A stretch of DNA of 64,000 nucleotides from NCBI GenBank assembly GCA_963840035.1, contig CAWIXE010000001.1, positions 332,503-396,502 of the forward strand, written 5' to 3'. The notes below the pieces were generated by a model, which saw only the letters and a list, made by a program, of their open reading frames with translations, ran no database searches and was not told the DNA's origin. Source of the stretch: a candidate division FCPU426 bacterium. Its GTDB lineage: Bacteria > Oederibacteriota > PGYV01 > Palsa-1178. The position numbers and the translations under genes are program-made. Position 1 is the first letter of the stretch, and each line of letters starts with the position of its first letter. This document shows, in pieces, positions 4,413 to 52,878 of this stretch.

Positions 4413-4504
4413 TACAATGGGCTATGTGTAATATTTTTCCGGGTTCCAGCGTGCGGGCCGCCACATGGGGCGGCCCCTACATGGTAAGTAATAATTCATA
4501 AAAC

Positions 4505-23010: not shown

Positions 23011-23179
23011 TCTCGTAGAGAGGGGGCTTGCCCCCTCTCAAACGCAGGCCTGCCTTGAGATCCAGCAAGCCGGCTCTCTACAGTTATATAAAACCACAAC
23101 AAAGTTCTCGTAGAGAGGGGGCTTGCCCCCTCTCCAGCGCAGGTCCTGCCCTGAGAGGCAGCAAGCCGCCTCTCTACAG
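23011..23179. repeat. Two REP-pair (BIME-like) units downstream of the RAYT gene
   Basis: The unit CTCGTAGAGAGGGGGCTTGCCCCCTCTC...CCGGCTCTCTACAG occurs twice (23011-23093 and 23106-23179). It has a GTAG head and hairpin stems. Confidence 0.65.
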
Positions 23180-23698
23180 GTTCTCTAACTTCTTCCGTTC
23201 CTCAAACAATTCATACCATTCCTTCTCTTCCATGCCGGGTTCATAAACCATTGGGTTGTTTAATATATACTCACTTGCAAAAAAATACTCAAATTCTCCC
23301 CGTATTATCCTGTCATAAAACCCTTCCTGCCAAAATTTCCTGCCGGGTTTCTGTTGTAATTTATTAATTGCTATCGTTGATTTTGATTTAAAAACGCATA
23401 TCATATCGTGGAGTGTTTTGCCTGTTTTCCTGCCAATCCGGATAATACCGTGCATATGATCCGGCATAAACATAAAATCGCCAAGAGCAATGTTTTCAAA
23501 CTTACTTTTTAGTTCGATCCAGCATGCTGTTGCCGCCTTTCCGGCGTCTGACAAAAACATTTTTCGGTCTTTTATAGAACCAAAAAAGTTATGCCGTTTA
23601 TCAAGACAGATGGTGACAGAATAATCCCCTTCCGATGAATAGTCATATTCTTTTAAATGATTTGATTCGATACGGTATTTGTTGTTGTAAAGCGACAT
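23174..23698 (-). CDS. REP-associated tyrosine transposase (RAYT, IS200/IS605 TnpA-like HUH enzyme)
   Basis: HUH motif FMPDHMHGIIRI. Catalytic Tyr region FWQEGFYDRIIRGE. 174 aa. Flanked on both sides by inverted REP pairs. Confidence 0.75.
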   Translation of the reverse strand: MSLYNNKYRIESNHLKEYDYSSEGDYSVTICLDKRHNFFGSIKDRKMFLSDAGKAATACWIELKSKFENIALGDFMFMPDHMHGIIRIGRKTGKTLHDMICVFKSKSTIAINKLQQKPGRKFWQEGFYDRIIRGEFEYFFASEYILNNPMVYEPGMEEKEWYELFEERKKLENL

Positions 23699-23744: not shown

Positions 23745-23894
23745 TTGCCCCCTCTCAAACGCAGTCCAGCCCTGAGAGCCAGCAAGCCGGCTCTCTACAG
23801 TTTTATAAATACAAAACAACGCTCTCGTAGAGAGGGGGCTTGCCCCCTCTCAAACGCAGGCCCTGCCCTGAGAGCCAGCAAGCCGGCTCTCTAC
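23745..23894. repeat. REP-pair (BIME-like) units upstream of the RAYT gene
   Basis: A partial unit plus a full unit of the same 75-85 bp repeat as 23011-23179. Confidence 0.65.
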
Positions 23895-33791: not shown

Positions 33792-34105
33792 GTAGAGACA
33801 CAGCTTGCTGTGTCTCGCATTTAACGCCTGGAACCCAACGTCTGAGACGCAGCCATTCGATATGTATATGTCATGAGAGTATTATAGGACTCATGGCATA
33901 TGCAAGCTGCGTCTCTACAGAAAACTAAAAACACTACATTAACCGTTTATGTATTTCGTAGAGACACAGCTTGCTGTGTCTCGCCTTAACACCTGGAATC
34001 CAACGTCTGAGACGCAGGCAAGTCTGCGTCTCTACAGAGAACTAAAAGAACACTACATTAACCGTTTATGTATTTCGTAGAGACACAGCTTGCTGTGTCT
34101 CGCCT
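33792..34105. repeat. REP/BIME cluster (about 2.5 tandem units of roughly 120 bp)
   Basis: Forward REP GTAGAGACACAGCTTGCTGTGTCTC. Inverted REP GAGACGCAG...CTGCGTCTCTACAG. The first unit carries a roughly 50 nt insertion in the hairpin loop. The spacer AACTAAAA.ACACTACATTAACCGTTTATGTATTTC is conserved. Confidence 0.6.
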
Positions 34106-36840: not shown

Positions 36841-36960
36841 TTTTTGTTTTGTAAAACCTTAACCCTTATCCTCATCCTTATCCTAAGCCTGTAGCTCTTG
36901 CTTTTAGATCTAAGGCTAAGTGCTAAGGGTAAGGATTAAGTATAAGGATAAGGTTCTTCC
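36841..36960. repeat. Family C CT-rich palindromic repeat, single diverged copy
   Basis: TAACCCTTATCCTCATCC...AGCCTGTAGCTCTTGCTTTTAGATCTAAGGCTAAG...AAGGATAAGG. Related to the tandem array at 38110-38830. Confidence 0.55.
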
Positions 36961-38109: not shown

Positions 38110-38830
38110 ATATAAAACCTTAACCCTTACCCTCACCCTTATCCTTAGCCTGTAGCTCTTGCATTTAGATTTAGAGCCAGAGCCAAATGCTAAGGTTAAG
38201 AATTAAGGATAAGGGTTAAGGTGCTACTTAACCCTCACCCTTAGCCTGTAGCTCTTGCATTTAGATTTAGAGCCAGAGCCAAATGCTAAGGTTAAGAATT
38301 AAGGATAAGGGTTAAGGTGCTACTTAACCCTCACCCTTAGCCTGTAGCTCTTGCATTTAGATTTAGAGCCAGAGCCAAATGCTAAGGTTAAGAATTAAGG
38401 ATAAGGGTTAAGGTGCTACTTAACCCTTACCCTTACCCTTAGCCTGTAGCTCTTGCATTTAGATTTAGAGCCAAAGCCAAATGCTAAGGTTAAGAATTAA
38501 GGACAAGGGTTAAGGTGCTACTTAACCCTTACCCTCACCCTTAGCCTGTAGCTCTTGCATTTAGATTTAGAGCCAGAGCCAAATGCTAAGGTTAAGAATT
38601 AAGGATAAGGGTTAAGGTGCTACTTAACCCTTACCCTCATCCTTATCCTTAGCCTGTAGCTCTTGCATTTAGATTTAGAGCCAGAGCCAAATGCTAAGGT
38701 TAAGAATTAAGGATAAGGGTTAAGGTGCTACTTAACCCTTACCCTCATCCTTAGCCTGTAGCTCTTGCATTTAGATTTAGGCCCAGAGCCAAATGCTAAG
38801 GTTAAGAATTAAGGATAAGGATTAAGGTGC
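38110..38830. repeat. Tandem array (about 7 copies, period about 95-102 bp) of family C CT-rich / AG-rich imperfect palindromic repeat
   Basis: Unit TTAACCCTTACCCTCACCCTTAGCCTGTAGCTCTTGCATTTAGATTTAGAGCCAGAGCCAAATGCTAAGGTTAAGAATTAAGGATAAGGGTTAAGGTGCTAC. The copy number of the CCCTTACCCTCAC sub-block varies. Confidence 0.7.
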
Positions 38831-39546
38831 TACCTGACTTCCACCGCTGCCGCATTATTCGCCGTATTGCTTTTTACGTCGGCGTCTATAAAGTACTGCT
38901 TTACGACCGTCCATCTTTTCGGCGGCCAGTAAACCAGCCACGCCCTTCCGCGGAAATACTCCCCGGGCAAAAAACCCCAGTGGCGCGAATCAGCCGAATT
39001 ATCCCTGTTGTCGCCCATCATAAAATAGGAACCTGCCGGAACTTTTATCGGCCCGAAATTGTCCCTGTATGAATCACCGTATGTTTTTTTATCGCTGTGC
39101 CACACATAAGGCTCTGATATTATTTTATTATTTATGAATAGCTGTTTGTTCTTTACCTGTATGATGTCCCCCGGCAGGCCGACGCAGCGCTTTATGAACA
39201 TTATATTAATATCCTGGGGATAGCGGAATATAGCGATTTCCCCCCTTTTTGGCATGGGAAACTTTACTGCTTTTTGCGCCTTTTCCGGAAGCAGCGAGCC
39301 GTATGCCCATTTATTAACGAGCAGCTGGTCCCCTTTAAGGAACGTATGCTCCATGGATTCCGAAGGTATCCTGAAGGCCTGTATGAAAAATATCCTTAAA
39401 ACCGCCGCCACGGCCATGGCAAAAAACGCCGGCTCCACCCAGTCCCGCAGTTCTGAATCCTTTACGCGTAATATGAATACGATAAGTATCTCAGCGAGGA
39501 AAAGCGTGCCGAACAGGGACCAGAAAATTATTTCCGTTACTTCCAT
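38830..39546 (-). CDS. lepB: Signal peptidase I
   Basis: SPase I boxes GDNRDNSADSRHWGF and the Ser/Lys regions. I place the start at MEVTEIIF (39546). The ORF-track N-terminal extension reads through the family D repeat. Confidence 0.8.
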   Translation of the reverse strand: MEVTEIIFWSLFGTLFLAEILIVFILRVKDSELRDWVEPAFFAMAVAAVLRIFFIQAFRIPSESMEHTFLKGDQLLVNKWAYGSLLPEKAQKAVKFPMPKRGEIAIFRYPQDINIMFIKRCVGLPGDIIQVKNKQLFINNKIISEPYVWHSDKKTYGDSYRDNFGPIKVPAGSYFMMGDNRDNSADSRHWGFLPGEYFRGRAWLVYWPPKRWTVVKQYFIDADVKSNTANNAAAVEVR

Positions 39547-44616: not shown

Positions 44617-44753
44617 AACAAATTTTCAATTCTAAATTTTCAATTTTCAATTAAATTCTTGCGTTTTAATAATCGCACTGTATAATGTCTTTTGTTATTA
44701 TTTGTTATTAATTGAAAATTTAAAATATAAAATTGAAAATCGGAAGGTTGACA

Positions 44754-45482: not shown

Positions 45483-45644
45483 TTTAATATTTCTATTAAA
45501 CCTTTAATATAAAACATTCCTGCGTTTCAAAACATAACATTTCTGTTCTATTTTTTAACATTTTCCGTTCTATTTTTAAACACTTTTATCCACATTTCCC
45601 CATTATAAATCACAAATAGTAAATTTTAAATGGGTTTTTCACTC

Positions 45645-45660
45645 TGGCACACCCCTTGCT
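45645..45660 (+). promoter_or_regulatory. Sigma-54 (RpoN) -24/-12 promoter upstream of hsp20
   Basis: TGGCACaccccTTGCT matches TGGCAC-N5-TTGCW exactly (GG-N10-GC spacing), about 60 nt upstream of the hsp20 ATG. Confidence 0.55.
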
Positions 45661-45718
45661 TTTTAATAATTTGAAACCGCTAACAATGGCGGGAATAAAA
45701 AACAAGGAGGCGAGTTGT

Positions 45719-46153
45719 ATGAGACATCTTGAAAGGCACGACTTACCGGTTTTAAGAAGTAACACCTTTTTTCCCAGCTTTTTCGACGACTTTTTAGGGA
45801 AAGAGGACTTCATGGGGCTTTCGAAGTTTACGCCGGCGGTTGATGTCGCGGAGGAAAAGGACAGGTATGTTGTGAAGGCGGATTTCCCGGGCATGAAACA
45901 GGAAGACATCAGGGTTGAGGTGGACGCTAACACGCTGACTATCTCGGGGGAAAGAAAGCACGAGAAAGAGGAAAAAGACGACAAAAAACACTACCACTAC
46001 TATGAGCGCAGCTACGGCTCTTTCGAACGCACCTTCACCCTCCCGCACGACGCTGACGGCGACAAGATCAAAGCCAAAGTGGAACACGGGGTCCTCACGG
46101 TTGACATACCGAAATCAGAGACGAAAAAGGCTAAGGAAATAAAGGTGGAGTAA
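45719..46153 (+). CDS. Small heat-shock protein, Hsp20/alpha-crystallin family
   Basis: Alpha-crystallin domain: VDVAEEKDRYVVKADFPGMKQEDIRVEVDANTLTISGERK...AKVEHGVLTVDIPK. AAGGAGG ribosome-binding site at 45704-45710. Confidence 0.85.
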   Translation: MRHLERHDLPVLRSNTFFPSFFDDFLGKEDFMGLSKFTPAVDVAEEKDRYVVKADFPGMKQEDIRVEVDANTLTISGERKHEKEEKDDKKHYHYYERSYGSFERTFTLPHDADGDKIKAKVEHGVLTVDIPKSETKKAKEIKVE

Positions 46154-46173
46154 CGCAAGGACAAATGAAACCT

Positions 46174-46208
46174 GAGGGCGCATAATATGCGCCCTCTACG
46201 GTTTTATG
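46174..46208 (+). terminator. Rho-independent terminator after hsp20
   Basis: GAGGGCGCATAATATGCGCCCTC (9 bp stem) followed by TACGGTTTTATG. Confidence 0.5.
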
Positions 46209-46249
46209 AATTGTCTTCCTCCTAAACCCCTAATCCTTACCCTTATGTT

Positions 46250-47333
46250 CCTGCCTTGAGACGCAGACAAGCTGCGTCTCTACAATGGTTGTAAATATTT
46301 CAGCTGTGAAAACCCGTAGAGACGGGACCCGTGCCCGTCTCCGCGCTGCTGCGTTGCTGCCCTGAGACGCAGACAAGCTGCGTCTCTACAGTGTGCGTAA
46401 ATATTTCAGTTCTTAAAACCCGTAGAGACGGGACCCGTGCCCGTCTCCGCGCTGCTGCGTTGCTGCCCTGAGACGCAGACAAGCTGCGTCTCTACAGTGG
46501 TTATAAATATTTCAGCTGTAAAAACCGTAGAGACGGGCCTTGTGCCCGTCTCCACGCTGCTGCGTTGTTGCACTGAGACGCAGACAAGCTGCGTCTCTAC
46601 AGTGGGTGTAAATATTTACAGCTGTTAAACCCGCAGAGACGGGACCCGTGCCCGTCTCCGCGCTGCTGCGTTGCTGCCCTGAGACGCAGACAAGCTGCGT
46701 CTCTACAATGGGTGTAAATATTTACAGCTGTTAAACCCGTAGAGACGGGACTCGTGCCCGTCTCCGCGCTGCTGCGTTGCTGCCCTGAGACGCAGACAAG
46801 CTGCGTCTCTACAATGGTTGTAAATATTTCAGCTGTTAAAACCGTAGAGACGGGACCCGTGCCCGTCTCCGCGCTGCTGCGTTGCTGCCCTGAGACGCAG
46901 ACAAGCTGCGTCTCTACAATGGTTGTAAATATTTCAGCTGTGAAAACCCGTAGAGACGGGACCCGTGCCCGTCTCCGCGCTGCTGCGTTGCTGCCCTGAG
47001 ACGCAGACAAGCTGCGTCTCTACAATGGTTGTAAATATTTCAGCTGTGAAAACCCGTAGAGACGGGACCCGTGCCCGTCTCCGCGCTGCTGCGTTGCTGC
47101 CCTGAGACGCAGACAAGCTGCGTCTCTACAATGGTTGTAAATATTTCAGCTGTTAAAACCGTAGAGACGGGCCTTGTGCCCGTCTCCGCGCTGCTGCGTT
47201 GCTGCCCTGAGACGCAGACAAGCTGCGTCTCTACAATGGTTGTAAATATTTCAGCTGTTAAAACCGTAGAGACGGGCCTCGTGCCCGTCTAAACCCCGGA
47301 TCGATCCAGACCCCCACGAGGGGCGTCTCTACG
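46250..47333. repeat. Tandem array of about 10.5 BIME-like units (period about 105-108 bp), each holding two inverted GTAG-headed REP hairpins
   Basis: Unit GTAGAGACGGGACCCGTGCCCGTCTCCGCGCTGCTGCGTTGCTGCCCTGAGACGCAGACAAGCTGCGTCTCTACAATGGTTGTAAATATTTCAGCTGTGAAAACCC. The spacers are not unique, so it is not CRISPR. Confidence 0.75.
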
Positions 47334-47339
47334 AATCTC

Positions 47340-47368
47340 TTGCATTTTCCTGTCACCTGCAATATAAT
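47340..47368 (+). promoter_or_regulatory. Candidate sigma-70 promoter for the DUF1844 gene
   Basis: TTGCAT, then a 17 nt spacer, then TATAAT. A GGGGAG ribosome-binding site lies 6 nt before the ATG at 47399. Confidence 0.4.
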
Positions 47369-47398
47369 ACATTCATATTAAACAAACGGGGAGATTAT

Positions 47399-47791
47399 AT
47401 GATAGACAACAAACAGGAAGACAACATAGACCTGATTAACCTTGTGCTCATGCTCAATCAGAACGCCTTAATATCTTTGGGTGAGGCTTCGCGGTTTGCC
47501 GGCGGGAAAAAGTCAGAGAACCTTCCCCACGCGCGGCAGGCCATCAACATGCTTAAATCCATACAGGAAAAGACCAAAAACAACCTCACTCCCGGCGAGA
47601 CAAAGCTTATTTTCAGGCTGCTGGGCGATTTGCAGGCCAAGTATGTGAAAGCCGCCGGGCTCGACAGGCCGGGGGAAGTCAAGTCCTCAAACCCCAAACG
47701 GGATAAGCTCGAAGCGGCACTGGATAAGTTCAAGACCGATGACCTTGCAAAGATACTCGCTGACCTCGCCAAAAAATCAGCAGATAAATAA
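47399..47791 (+). CDS. DUF1844-family protein
   Basis: DLINLVLMLNQNALISLGE...NLPHARQAINMLKSIQEKTKNNLTPGETKLIFRLLGDLQAKYVKA fits the DUF1844 pattern. Confidence 0.6.
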   Translation: MIDNKQEDNIDLINLVLMLNQNALISLGEASRFAGGKKSENLPHARQAINMLKSIQEKTKNNLTPGETKLIFRLLGDLQAKYVKAAGLDRPGEVKSSNPKRDKLEAALDKFKTDDLAKILADLAKKSADK

Positions 47792-52641: not shown

Positions 52642-52878
52642 ATTATTCTCCTGTTGTTATTGTATGGTTCTGTAGTGGCAATTCATGAATTGCCGATCCT
52701 TCCCTGGGCGATTCGTGAATCGCCCCTACAAAAACAATGCTCATTTTTAAATAAAGCCGGGTATCCGATAACTCCTTCCGGGCATCCGGTACCGTTGCTT
52801 CCTTCCGGACCTGGCGGGGTTGCGGAGCCGGCAAGCGCATCAGACCCGGCCTTATTTTGTTTGTTTTGTTTTTATATT

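Follow-up and report, generated by a model that had tools for sequence, protein, structure and literature searches.

A ~1-kb tandem repeat between hsp20 and a DUF1844 gene: a probable BIME-2-like array of GTAG-tagged REP doublets in an uncultured bacterium

Introduction

What is a 1-kb run of almost identical palindromes doing between two protein-coding genes, and how did it arise there? The window, the whole stretch of 64,000 nucleotides analysed here, contains an hsp20 gene (45719–46153, + strand; Pfam HSP20, E = 1.8e-29) and a DUF1844 gene (47399–47791, + strand; Pfam DUF1844, E = 1.1e-18). The repeat lies in the spacer between them.

Two kinds of known element frame the question. A short palindrome with GTAG at its 5′ end is the hallmark of the GTAG superfamily of repetitive extragenic palindromes (REPs), which stand most often in inverted pairs whose tags point outwards and whose spacer is conserved (Di Nocera et al. 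2013, PMC3733652). The BIME-2 of E. coli are found in tandem; copies at one locus resemble each other closely, and their number differs from strain to strain (Ton-Hoang 2012, PMC3333891).

We propose that the repeat is very probably an array of tandem REP doublets (BIME-2-like, or a tandem REPIN cluster) belonging to the GTAG-tagged family that goes with the RAYT encoded in the window. RAYT stands for REP-associated tyrosine transposase, also called TnpA-REP.

Structure of the array

Tandem Repeats Finder (TRF) reports a single array at 46247–47290 (period 106, 94% matches, score 1818) with 9.9 copies, a number that holds for the array as assembled, the interior not being spanned by short-read contigs. 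TRF, repeat families and the unit alignment together delimit the array, with a unit of 105/106 bp. Beyond it a single divergent hairpin forms the terminus and ends at 47332. A preliminary description of this DNA had counted about 10.5 units of about 106 bp, and the array that it described is real.

Each unit consists, in order, of a REP(-), a 32–33-nt AT-rich linker towards which the GTAG tags face, a REP(+), and a 22-nt conserved linker from which the tags face outwards. The 26-mer GAGACGCAGACAAGCTGCGTCTCTAC occurs ten times exactly, at a spacing of 105/106 nt, and a divergent 11th copy lies at 47307–47332. Interleaved with it are ten copies of a partner hairpin, GTAGAGACGGG-loop-CCCGTCTC. 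The ten REP(-) on the - strand are identical (GTAGAGACGCAG-CTTGT-CTGCGTCTC). The first occupies 46258–46283 and the others start, in + coordinates, at 46364, 46470, 46575, 46681, 46787, 46892, 46998, 47104 and 47209. The first REP(+) lies at 46316–46341 on the + strand, followed by starts at 46422, 46527, 46633, 46739, 46844, 46950, 47056, 47161 and 47266. Read on its own strand, with GTAG at the foot of the stem, the element is GTAGAGACGGG..CCCGTCTC on + and GTAGAGACGCAGcttgtCTGCGTCTC on -.

The REPs are 25–26 nt long, have loops of 4–7 nt and alternate strictly between + and -. All but one of the 21 carry a 5′ GTAG; the exception is the partner hairpin at 46633, whose tag is GCAG. The last partner copy ends in ...GTCTA. 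Both hairpins have perfect stems of 8–9 bp, so the earlier claim of two perfect hairpins in opposite orientation per unit is borne out. The window contains 22 occurrences of the 9-mer GTAGAGACG, whereas shuffles predict 0.13.

Grouped with their tags outside, the REPs form ten doublets of 67–74 nt each. At the end of the array stands a divergent doublet (47266–47332), composed of the last REP(+), a 16-nt linker (47291–47306) unlike that of the other units, and a REP(-), GTAGAGACGCCCCTCGTGGGGGTCTG; its arms are 81% complementary. The total is 21 REPs, that is, ten doublets and one REP. E. coli BIME-2 reach about a dozen REPs.

Variation between units is small and localized. Pairs of units differ at 0–14 positions, 1-nt indels included. 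In the unit alignment the REP(-) is invariant, and so are the stems of the REP(+), whose loops vary (ACCCGTG, ACTCGTG, CTTGT, CTCGT). The 22-nt linker is conserved in eight of nine copies, and the AT-rich linker is the most variable part of the unit. The differences thus fall in loops and linkers, which supports the preliminary view that they are variants and not spacers. Units 1, 7 and 8 are identical and units 9 and 10 nearly so, a pattern that supports recent duplication or conversion.

Regularly spaced palindromes could in principle belong to small RNA genes in series, to a degenerate CRISPR or to repetitive coding DNA, and mechanical ORFs of up to 137 aa do cross the array. For a CRISPR-like array the preliminary description had looked to unique spacers between units. 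Here all units share the same segments between hairpins, and successive hairpins point in opposite directions. Unique spacers are absent, and therefore the array is not CRISPR-like. Nor is it coding: with a period of 105/106, which is no multiple of three and is shifted by 1-nt indels, no reading frame is kept. Rfam, searched with the whole window at gathering thresholds and with the array at E ≤ 1, returned only sub-threshold matches to OxyS (the best with 22 bits against a gathering threshold of 75), and the small RNA array was dropped as a candidate. The array is also not conserved in relatives, as described below. None of these three readings retains any real credibility.

Assembly of the array

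Could the array be an assembly artefact, if not as a whole then in its copy number and order of variants? Two observations would fit. The short-read contigs of ERR11594406 stop at either edge and do not resolve the interior of the array, and several unit differences are 1-nt changes in the length of A, T or C runs, which are typical of long-read error. However, the same contigs (Logan) are 100% identical to the window up to where they stop, at 46286, and again from where they resume, at 47266. The first position is 3 nt past the first REP; the second is the GTAG of the last REP(+). Since the contigs reach both edges at full identity, both junctions between unique DNA and REP are independently reproduced. 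Furthermore, the source contig is 1.235 Mb long, the unit substitutions follow a non-periodic order, unlike those of a collapsed or artificially expanded repeat, and two further tandem clusters of small palindromes were assembled in the same window. An artefact is thus very improbable.

A true repeat of some 1 kb would defeat short reads in just this way, and the array repeat is genuine. The array accounts for both the 1-kb non-coding repeat and the breaks in the short-read assembly at this place.

Folding of the doublets

Both minimum-energy and centroid folds of the doublet give two separate local hairpins. The arms of the array doublets are 71–74% complementary, and the single long hairpin of a REPIN is not formed by the doublets in these folds. 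The unit hairpins are stable (z = -4.3 as DNA and -6.3 as RNA). The preliminary description had suggested that long-range pairing could zip the whole array; the minimum-energy folds contain local hairpins instead of such zipping.

The RAYT gene

A RAYT gene lies about 23 kb from the array, at 23174–23698 on the - strand (174 aa), and a profile built from its homologues detects only this one in the window. The protein carries the HUH motif PDHMHG (H81, H83) and the tyrosine motif EY144ILNNP; the HUH histidines and the tyrosine of EYILNNP are invariant in 16 homologues, several of which are labelled 'REP element-mobilizing transposase RayT' by JGI. It scores 28.5 bits against Pfam Y1_Tnp (cut-off 23). 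Against NCBIfam REP_Tyr_transpos (NF047646) it scores 56.4 bits (E = 2.9e-15), which fails the curated cut-off of 80, while the score against the IS200 model is far lower (20.1 bits).

A PDB sequence search with the protein gave zero matches, and we therefore turned to structure prediction and Foldseek. The AlphaFold model (pLDDT 83) has its best PDB match in 4ER8_A (E = 2.9e-7, TM 0.62/0.65). This entry is E. coli TnpA-REP bound to a REP hairpin, and it outranks the IS200/IS605 transposases. There is no tnpB beside the gene.

The RAYT gene sits among REPs of its own. Two doublets lie downstream (23015–23177; GTAGAGAGGGGGCTTGCCCCCTCTC, a 17–18-nt linker and ...CTCTCTAC), and one truncated and one complete doublet lie upstream (23745–23894). 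On both sides they are GTAGAGAG... doublets of the GTAGAGA type, and the gene's TAG stop codon coincides with the last three letters of the neighbouring REP's GTAG tag. Judged by its sequence layout, the segment 23015–23698 together with 23745–23894 is a REPtron, as described by Ton-Hoang 2012 (PMC3333891). The orthologues (64% identical; contigs L121 and L123–L125) repeat this layout: GTAGAG(A/C)GGCTGCTTGCTGCC... doublets stand on both sides, the stop codon TAG is the end of the next REP's GTAG tag, as in the window, and the chromosomal contexts are conserved.

Related REPs in the window

We searched the entire window for perfect hairpins preceded by GTAG. Members of the GTAGAGA-type family lie at three loci in the 64 kb, at 23.0–23.9 kb, 33.8–34.1 kb and 46.17–47.33 kb, and all of them are intergenic. 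The middle locus (33792–34101) contains three GTAGAGACACAGCTTGCTGTGTCTC REPs on the + strand. Two of these have a GTAGAGACGCAG-type REP(-) as partner, and 53 nt are inserted into the loop of the first REP(-). At this locus and around the RAYT gene, every REP starts with GTAG. Two GTAGGGGC-type GTAG hairpins (4455–4480 and 52706–52729) have a different stem and look like another family.

The array doublets align with those of the RAYT flanks, the 33.8-kb cluster and two relatives, and all follow a common frame: a GTAGAGA start, CTGAGA before the second REP and a TCTCTAC end. The GTAG-tagged alternating hairpins, the conserved linkers and a RAYT with related doublets in the window support the preliminary label 'BIME-like'. 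Within this frame the stems differ, with GAGACG... in the array and GAGAGG or GAGAGC around the RAYT gene, which makes them different subtypes. The cognate transposase of the array REPs could be a second RAYT elsewhere in the genome.

Separately, the window holds an unrelated palindromic element of 102 bp in seven copies (38129–38833), which has no clear REP structure.

Flanking genes and a possible function

The array lies between co-directional genes, and each has its own promoter-like site. By sequence reading, a sigma-54-type site (TGGCAC-N5-TTGC, 45645–45659) lies ahead of hsp20. A promoter-like TTGCAT-17 nt-TATAAT (47340–47368), read by eye, precedes the DUF1844 gene; the consensus scan did not flag it because its -35 hexamer matches the consensus at only three of six positions. 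A single REP-family hairpin (GTAGAGGGCGCATATTATGCGCCCTC, 46174–46199, - strand) follows the hsp20 stop codon at a distance of 21 nt, and a short T run comes after it on the + strand. The flanks are thus as previously described, with the refinement that the hsp20 'terminator' is itself a REP-family hairpin. A scan for sigma-70 promoters and terminators found zero per-unit promoters in the array, and its only terminator-like matches were the REP hairpins themselves.

These surroundings invite the idea that the same elements form a device kept by selection: a transcription barrier or insulator between the two genes, a stabilizer of the hsp20 mRNA 3′ end, or a site for gyrase or nucleoid proteins like E. 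coli BIMEs. The position between two separately promoted genes, two stable hairpins per unit, the REP-family hairpin that already serves as the terminator-like structure of hsp20, and the roles of this kind reported for REPs and BIMEs in the literature would all agree with it. So would the invariance of the REP(-) copies and REP(+) stems, although recent amplification explains that invariance equally well. Besides, a single hairpin would suffice for termination or stabilization. The array is already 3′ of a terminator-like hairpin and 5′ of a separate promoter-like site, which speaks against the insulator and mRNA-stabilizer roles raised in the preliminary description.

Orthologous loci in relatives

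Comparison with relatives also speaks against such a device. The relatives are orthologous DUF1844 loci obtained from a protein-guided scan of metagenome contigs. At the three closest loci (L126, L127 and L131; DUF1844 90–92% identical) the PHP gene abuts the DUF1844 gene, and hsp20, the array and GTAG hairpins are all missing. At L128 (DUF1844 80%) a GTAGAGAGGCTG-type doublet follows directly after the PHP gene, in a position syntenic to the array, and the gap is filled by other genes. The more distant L132 (DUF1844 67%) does have hsp20 upstream, but its 730-nt spacer contains an unrelated direct repeat of about 330 nt.

Because the array is absent at the closest orthologous loci, it is lineage-specific and not a conserved regulatory device. 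The REP family is common to the clade, but the array at this locus is not conserved. With both the array and hsp20 missing at the closest loci, a selected insulator or stabilizer role is unlikely, and we hold the whole idea of a selected device to be improbable.

Distribution beyond the window

How widespread is this kind of element? The pattern GTAGAGACGCAG-N4-8-CTGCGTCTC occurs at no fewer than 118 loci in a scan of a genome collection. Among the matches listed, the loci are labelled Acidobacteriota, Chloroflexota, Bacteroidota, Cyanobacteria, Spirochaetota, Patescibacteria and others, and the commonest form is GTAGAGACGCAGCATGCTGCGTCTC. The CTTG loop occurs, again among the matches listed, only in loci labelled Terriglobia or other Acidobacteriota. 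In those loci the elements are mostly single or paired. The largest cluster has 8 REPs and lies at a contig end, a maximum that is biased downward by fragmented MAG assemblies. The exact 34-nt linker pattern of the array has zero matches in JGI metagenome contigs, and the JGI metagenome scan found no dispersed copies of the exact array doublet outside the window.

Origin of the array

How, then, might the array have formed? By analogy with E. coli TnpA-REP, the RAYT may first have placed a REP doublet in the spacer between hsp20 and the DUF1844 gene, acting on single-stranded DNA. In vitro, the E. coli enzyme binds single-stranded REPs via the hairpin and the GTAG tag, and it cuts at nearby sites, namely CT dinucleotides 5′ or 3′ of the REP (PMC3333891). 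A 14-nt direct repeat on either side of the array (46222 and 47289) was considered as a target-site duplication and rejected, as we estimate that about three such matches are expected by chance in this region.

In a second step, a 106-bp block made of the doublet and its flanking linker would have been amplified locally. Once two copies exist, the simplest amplifier would be unequal recombination or replication slippage, accompanied by gene conversion between near-identical units.

Alternatively, the RAYT itself could be the main amplifier, by cleavage and strand transfer or by copying an excised doublet as a rolling circle. The E. coli TnpA-REP can join BIMEs in tandem by strand transfer in vitro (PMC3333891), and models have been published. 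The repeat period equals the distance from GTAG to GTAG on one strand, a RAYT gene is present in the window, and its own flanks are short tandem clusters of doublets. Yet the first position of the array (46247) falls within a linker rather than on a tag. Some identical units are separated by others, and the identity of unit 1 with units 7 and 8 fits conversion or unequal exchange. The unrelated 102-bp palindrome (38129–38833), also amplified seven times, points to a general tendency of this genome towards tandem duplication. For these three reasons we favour host recombination or slippage as the main amplifier. In addition, the array REPs are of another subtype than those flanking the RAYT gene. 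Amplification mainly by the RAYT is conceivable, but it is the less likely route.

It is most likely that the array arose as a by-product of the REP system, specific to this lineage, and is not a device selected at this locus; we infer this lack of function. Incidental effects on termination, on RNA decay (as a block to exonucleases), on supercoiling and on recombination are possible, by analogy with other REPs.

A bolder reading is that this uncultured lineage may possess an active REP/RAYT system whose local tandem amplification has gone unusually far. We consider it a long shot. It draws on the 21 REPs, the three-unit clusters at two other loci and the seven copies of the 102-bp palindrome. 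On this reading, either one RAYT would serve several stem subtypes via the shared GTAGAGA foot, or amplification would be uncoupled from RAYT specificity. If it were true, the presence of the GTAGAGACGCAG...CTGCGTCTC core in many phyla would indicate a REP type that is either very old or spreading horizontally.

The locus opens no new kind of biology. It does identify a REPtron in an uncultured bacterium. Moreover, three stem subtypes that share one GTAGAGA foot provide natural substrates for studying RAYT specificity and the unsettled amplification of BIMEs.

Comparison with known systems

The closest relatives of the array in architecture can be compared one by one. The transposase agrees with RAYT/TnpA-REP proteins (PDB 4ER8; NCBIfam NF047646) in its Y1 HUH fold, its HUH and catalytic tyrosine motifs and its length of about 170 aa, and its gene is flanked by its own REPs. 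It differs from 4ER8 in sequence, with 19% identity over the structural alignment, and it misses the NF047646 cut-off.

The REPs share several features with the GTAG-tagged superfamily (Di Nocera et al. 2013, PMC3733652). GTAG stands directly 5′ of a 6–13-bp stem with a short loop; dimers have their tags outside (HH) and conserved spacers from about 20 nt upwards, and include heterodimers; tandem-reiterated dimers form clusters; and GTAG repeats surround RAYT genes. That source distinguishes 24 families; the stem type found here is GTAGAGAC/GTAGAGAG.

With E. coli BIME-2 (Gilson, Bachellier; Ton-Hoang 2012, PMC3333891) the array shares extragenic GTAG-tagged REPs that alternate in orientation, and two REP variants per pair (a heterodimer, like y and z2). 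One short linker is conserved and the other flanking linker is more variable, tandem copies are well conserved within the locus, and the genome carries a RAYT gene between BIMEs, as a REPtron. The differences lie in the REP sequence, in perfect 8–9-bp stems that lack the bulge required by E. coli TnpA-REP, in the 21 REPs at one locus, and in the host, an uncultured bacterium with 45.5% G+C.

The REPIN clusters and REP arrays of Pseudomonas fluorescens SBW25 (Bertels and Rainey 2011, PMC3116915) likewise consist of near-identical REP doublets in tandem, flanks included. There, too, REP clusters lie beside each RAYT gene and several REP subtypes occur per genome. In contrast to SBW25, the doublets here fold as two hairpins and not as one REPIN hairpin, and the array is larger, with ten doublets and one REP. 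The maxima in SBW25 are 4 REPINs per REPIN cluster and 12 REPs per REP array (PMC3116915). The preliminary description had called arrays of this length unusual. The claim is partly right: REP doublets reiterated in tandem have already been published, but 21 REPs exceed both maxima. The array adds a long example to the BIME and REPIN clusters known so far, and its 21 REPs lie at the high end of their range rather than marking a different kind of thing.

A second tandem array and the locus of the REP array

The window holds a further tandem array, unrelated to the REP array, with seven copies of a 102-bp element (38129-38833, 93% matches). Its unit is a long imperfect palindrome made of CCCTTA/CCCTCA-like hexamers, and the motif occurs 22 times, where 1.3 occurrences are expected. 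A single copy sits between two genes at 36855-36960. Directly left of the REP array lies a fragment of the same element, CCTTACCCTTA (46222-46250).

In the closest relatives (metagenome contigs L126, L127 and L131), the interval between the PHP and DUF1844 genes, compared with window positions 45483-47398, lacks hsp20 as well as the array. A more distant relative (L132, 654-1388) has hsp20, and the spacer there carries an unrelated direct repeat (about 330 nt). One Logan short-read contig (L157) ends at 44650, within a small repeat of 4.6 AATTTTC copies (44621-44652). This repeat is a further breakpoint of the short-read assembly.

Hairpins within the window

In the cluster of intergenic REPs near 33.8 kb, one REP on the reverse strand has 53 additional nucleotides inserted precisely into the loop (33849-33901, between GAGACGCAG and CTGCGTCTCTAC). 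Read by eye, the insertion appears partially self-complementary.

On the reverse strand at 52706-52729 is a hairpin that bears the GTAG tag on another kind of stem (GTAGGGGCGATTCACGAATCGCCC). The SRP RNA gene (52752-52851, reverse strand) has its 3' end 22 nt upstream of this hairpin. A hairpin resembling it is also present at 4455-4480.

REPs in and next to coding sequences

The RAYT gene ends in a TAG stop codon that it shares with the adjoining REP, whose GTAG tag closes with these three bases (23174-23177). The same overlap is found in RAYT orthologues of 64% identity (L121, 10543-10546; L123, 10534-10537).

Two RAYT homologues, one from a Magasanikbacteria MAG with 33% G+C (L044, 6543-7250) and one from a Rhodothermales MAG with 69% G+C (L013, 4085-5755, reverse strand), contain an in-frame GTAGAGACGCAG-type REP right behind the HUH motif, which is translated as VETQ... 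A third homologue, read as protein (P0016), has a similar insertion, VETMHASFLQ, at the same place after the HUH motif.

In-frame GTAGAGACGCAG REP insertions, with the peptide VETQ.AAS.., are also seen in long ORFs at two loci with the REP core (L018, about 2158-2185; L075, 3174-3198). Judged by eye, the peptides around these insertions resemble a histidine kinase ATPase domain.

Spread of the REP core

The 21-base REP core, GTAGAGACGCAG...CTGCGTCTC, is found in MAGs from many phyla among the matches listed (loci L002-L119), and in these matches the loop sequence tracks the taxon. The CATG loop is widespread among them, and the CTTG loop occurs only in those titled Terriglobia or other Acidobacteriota.
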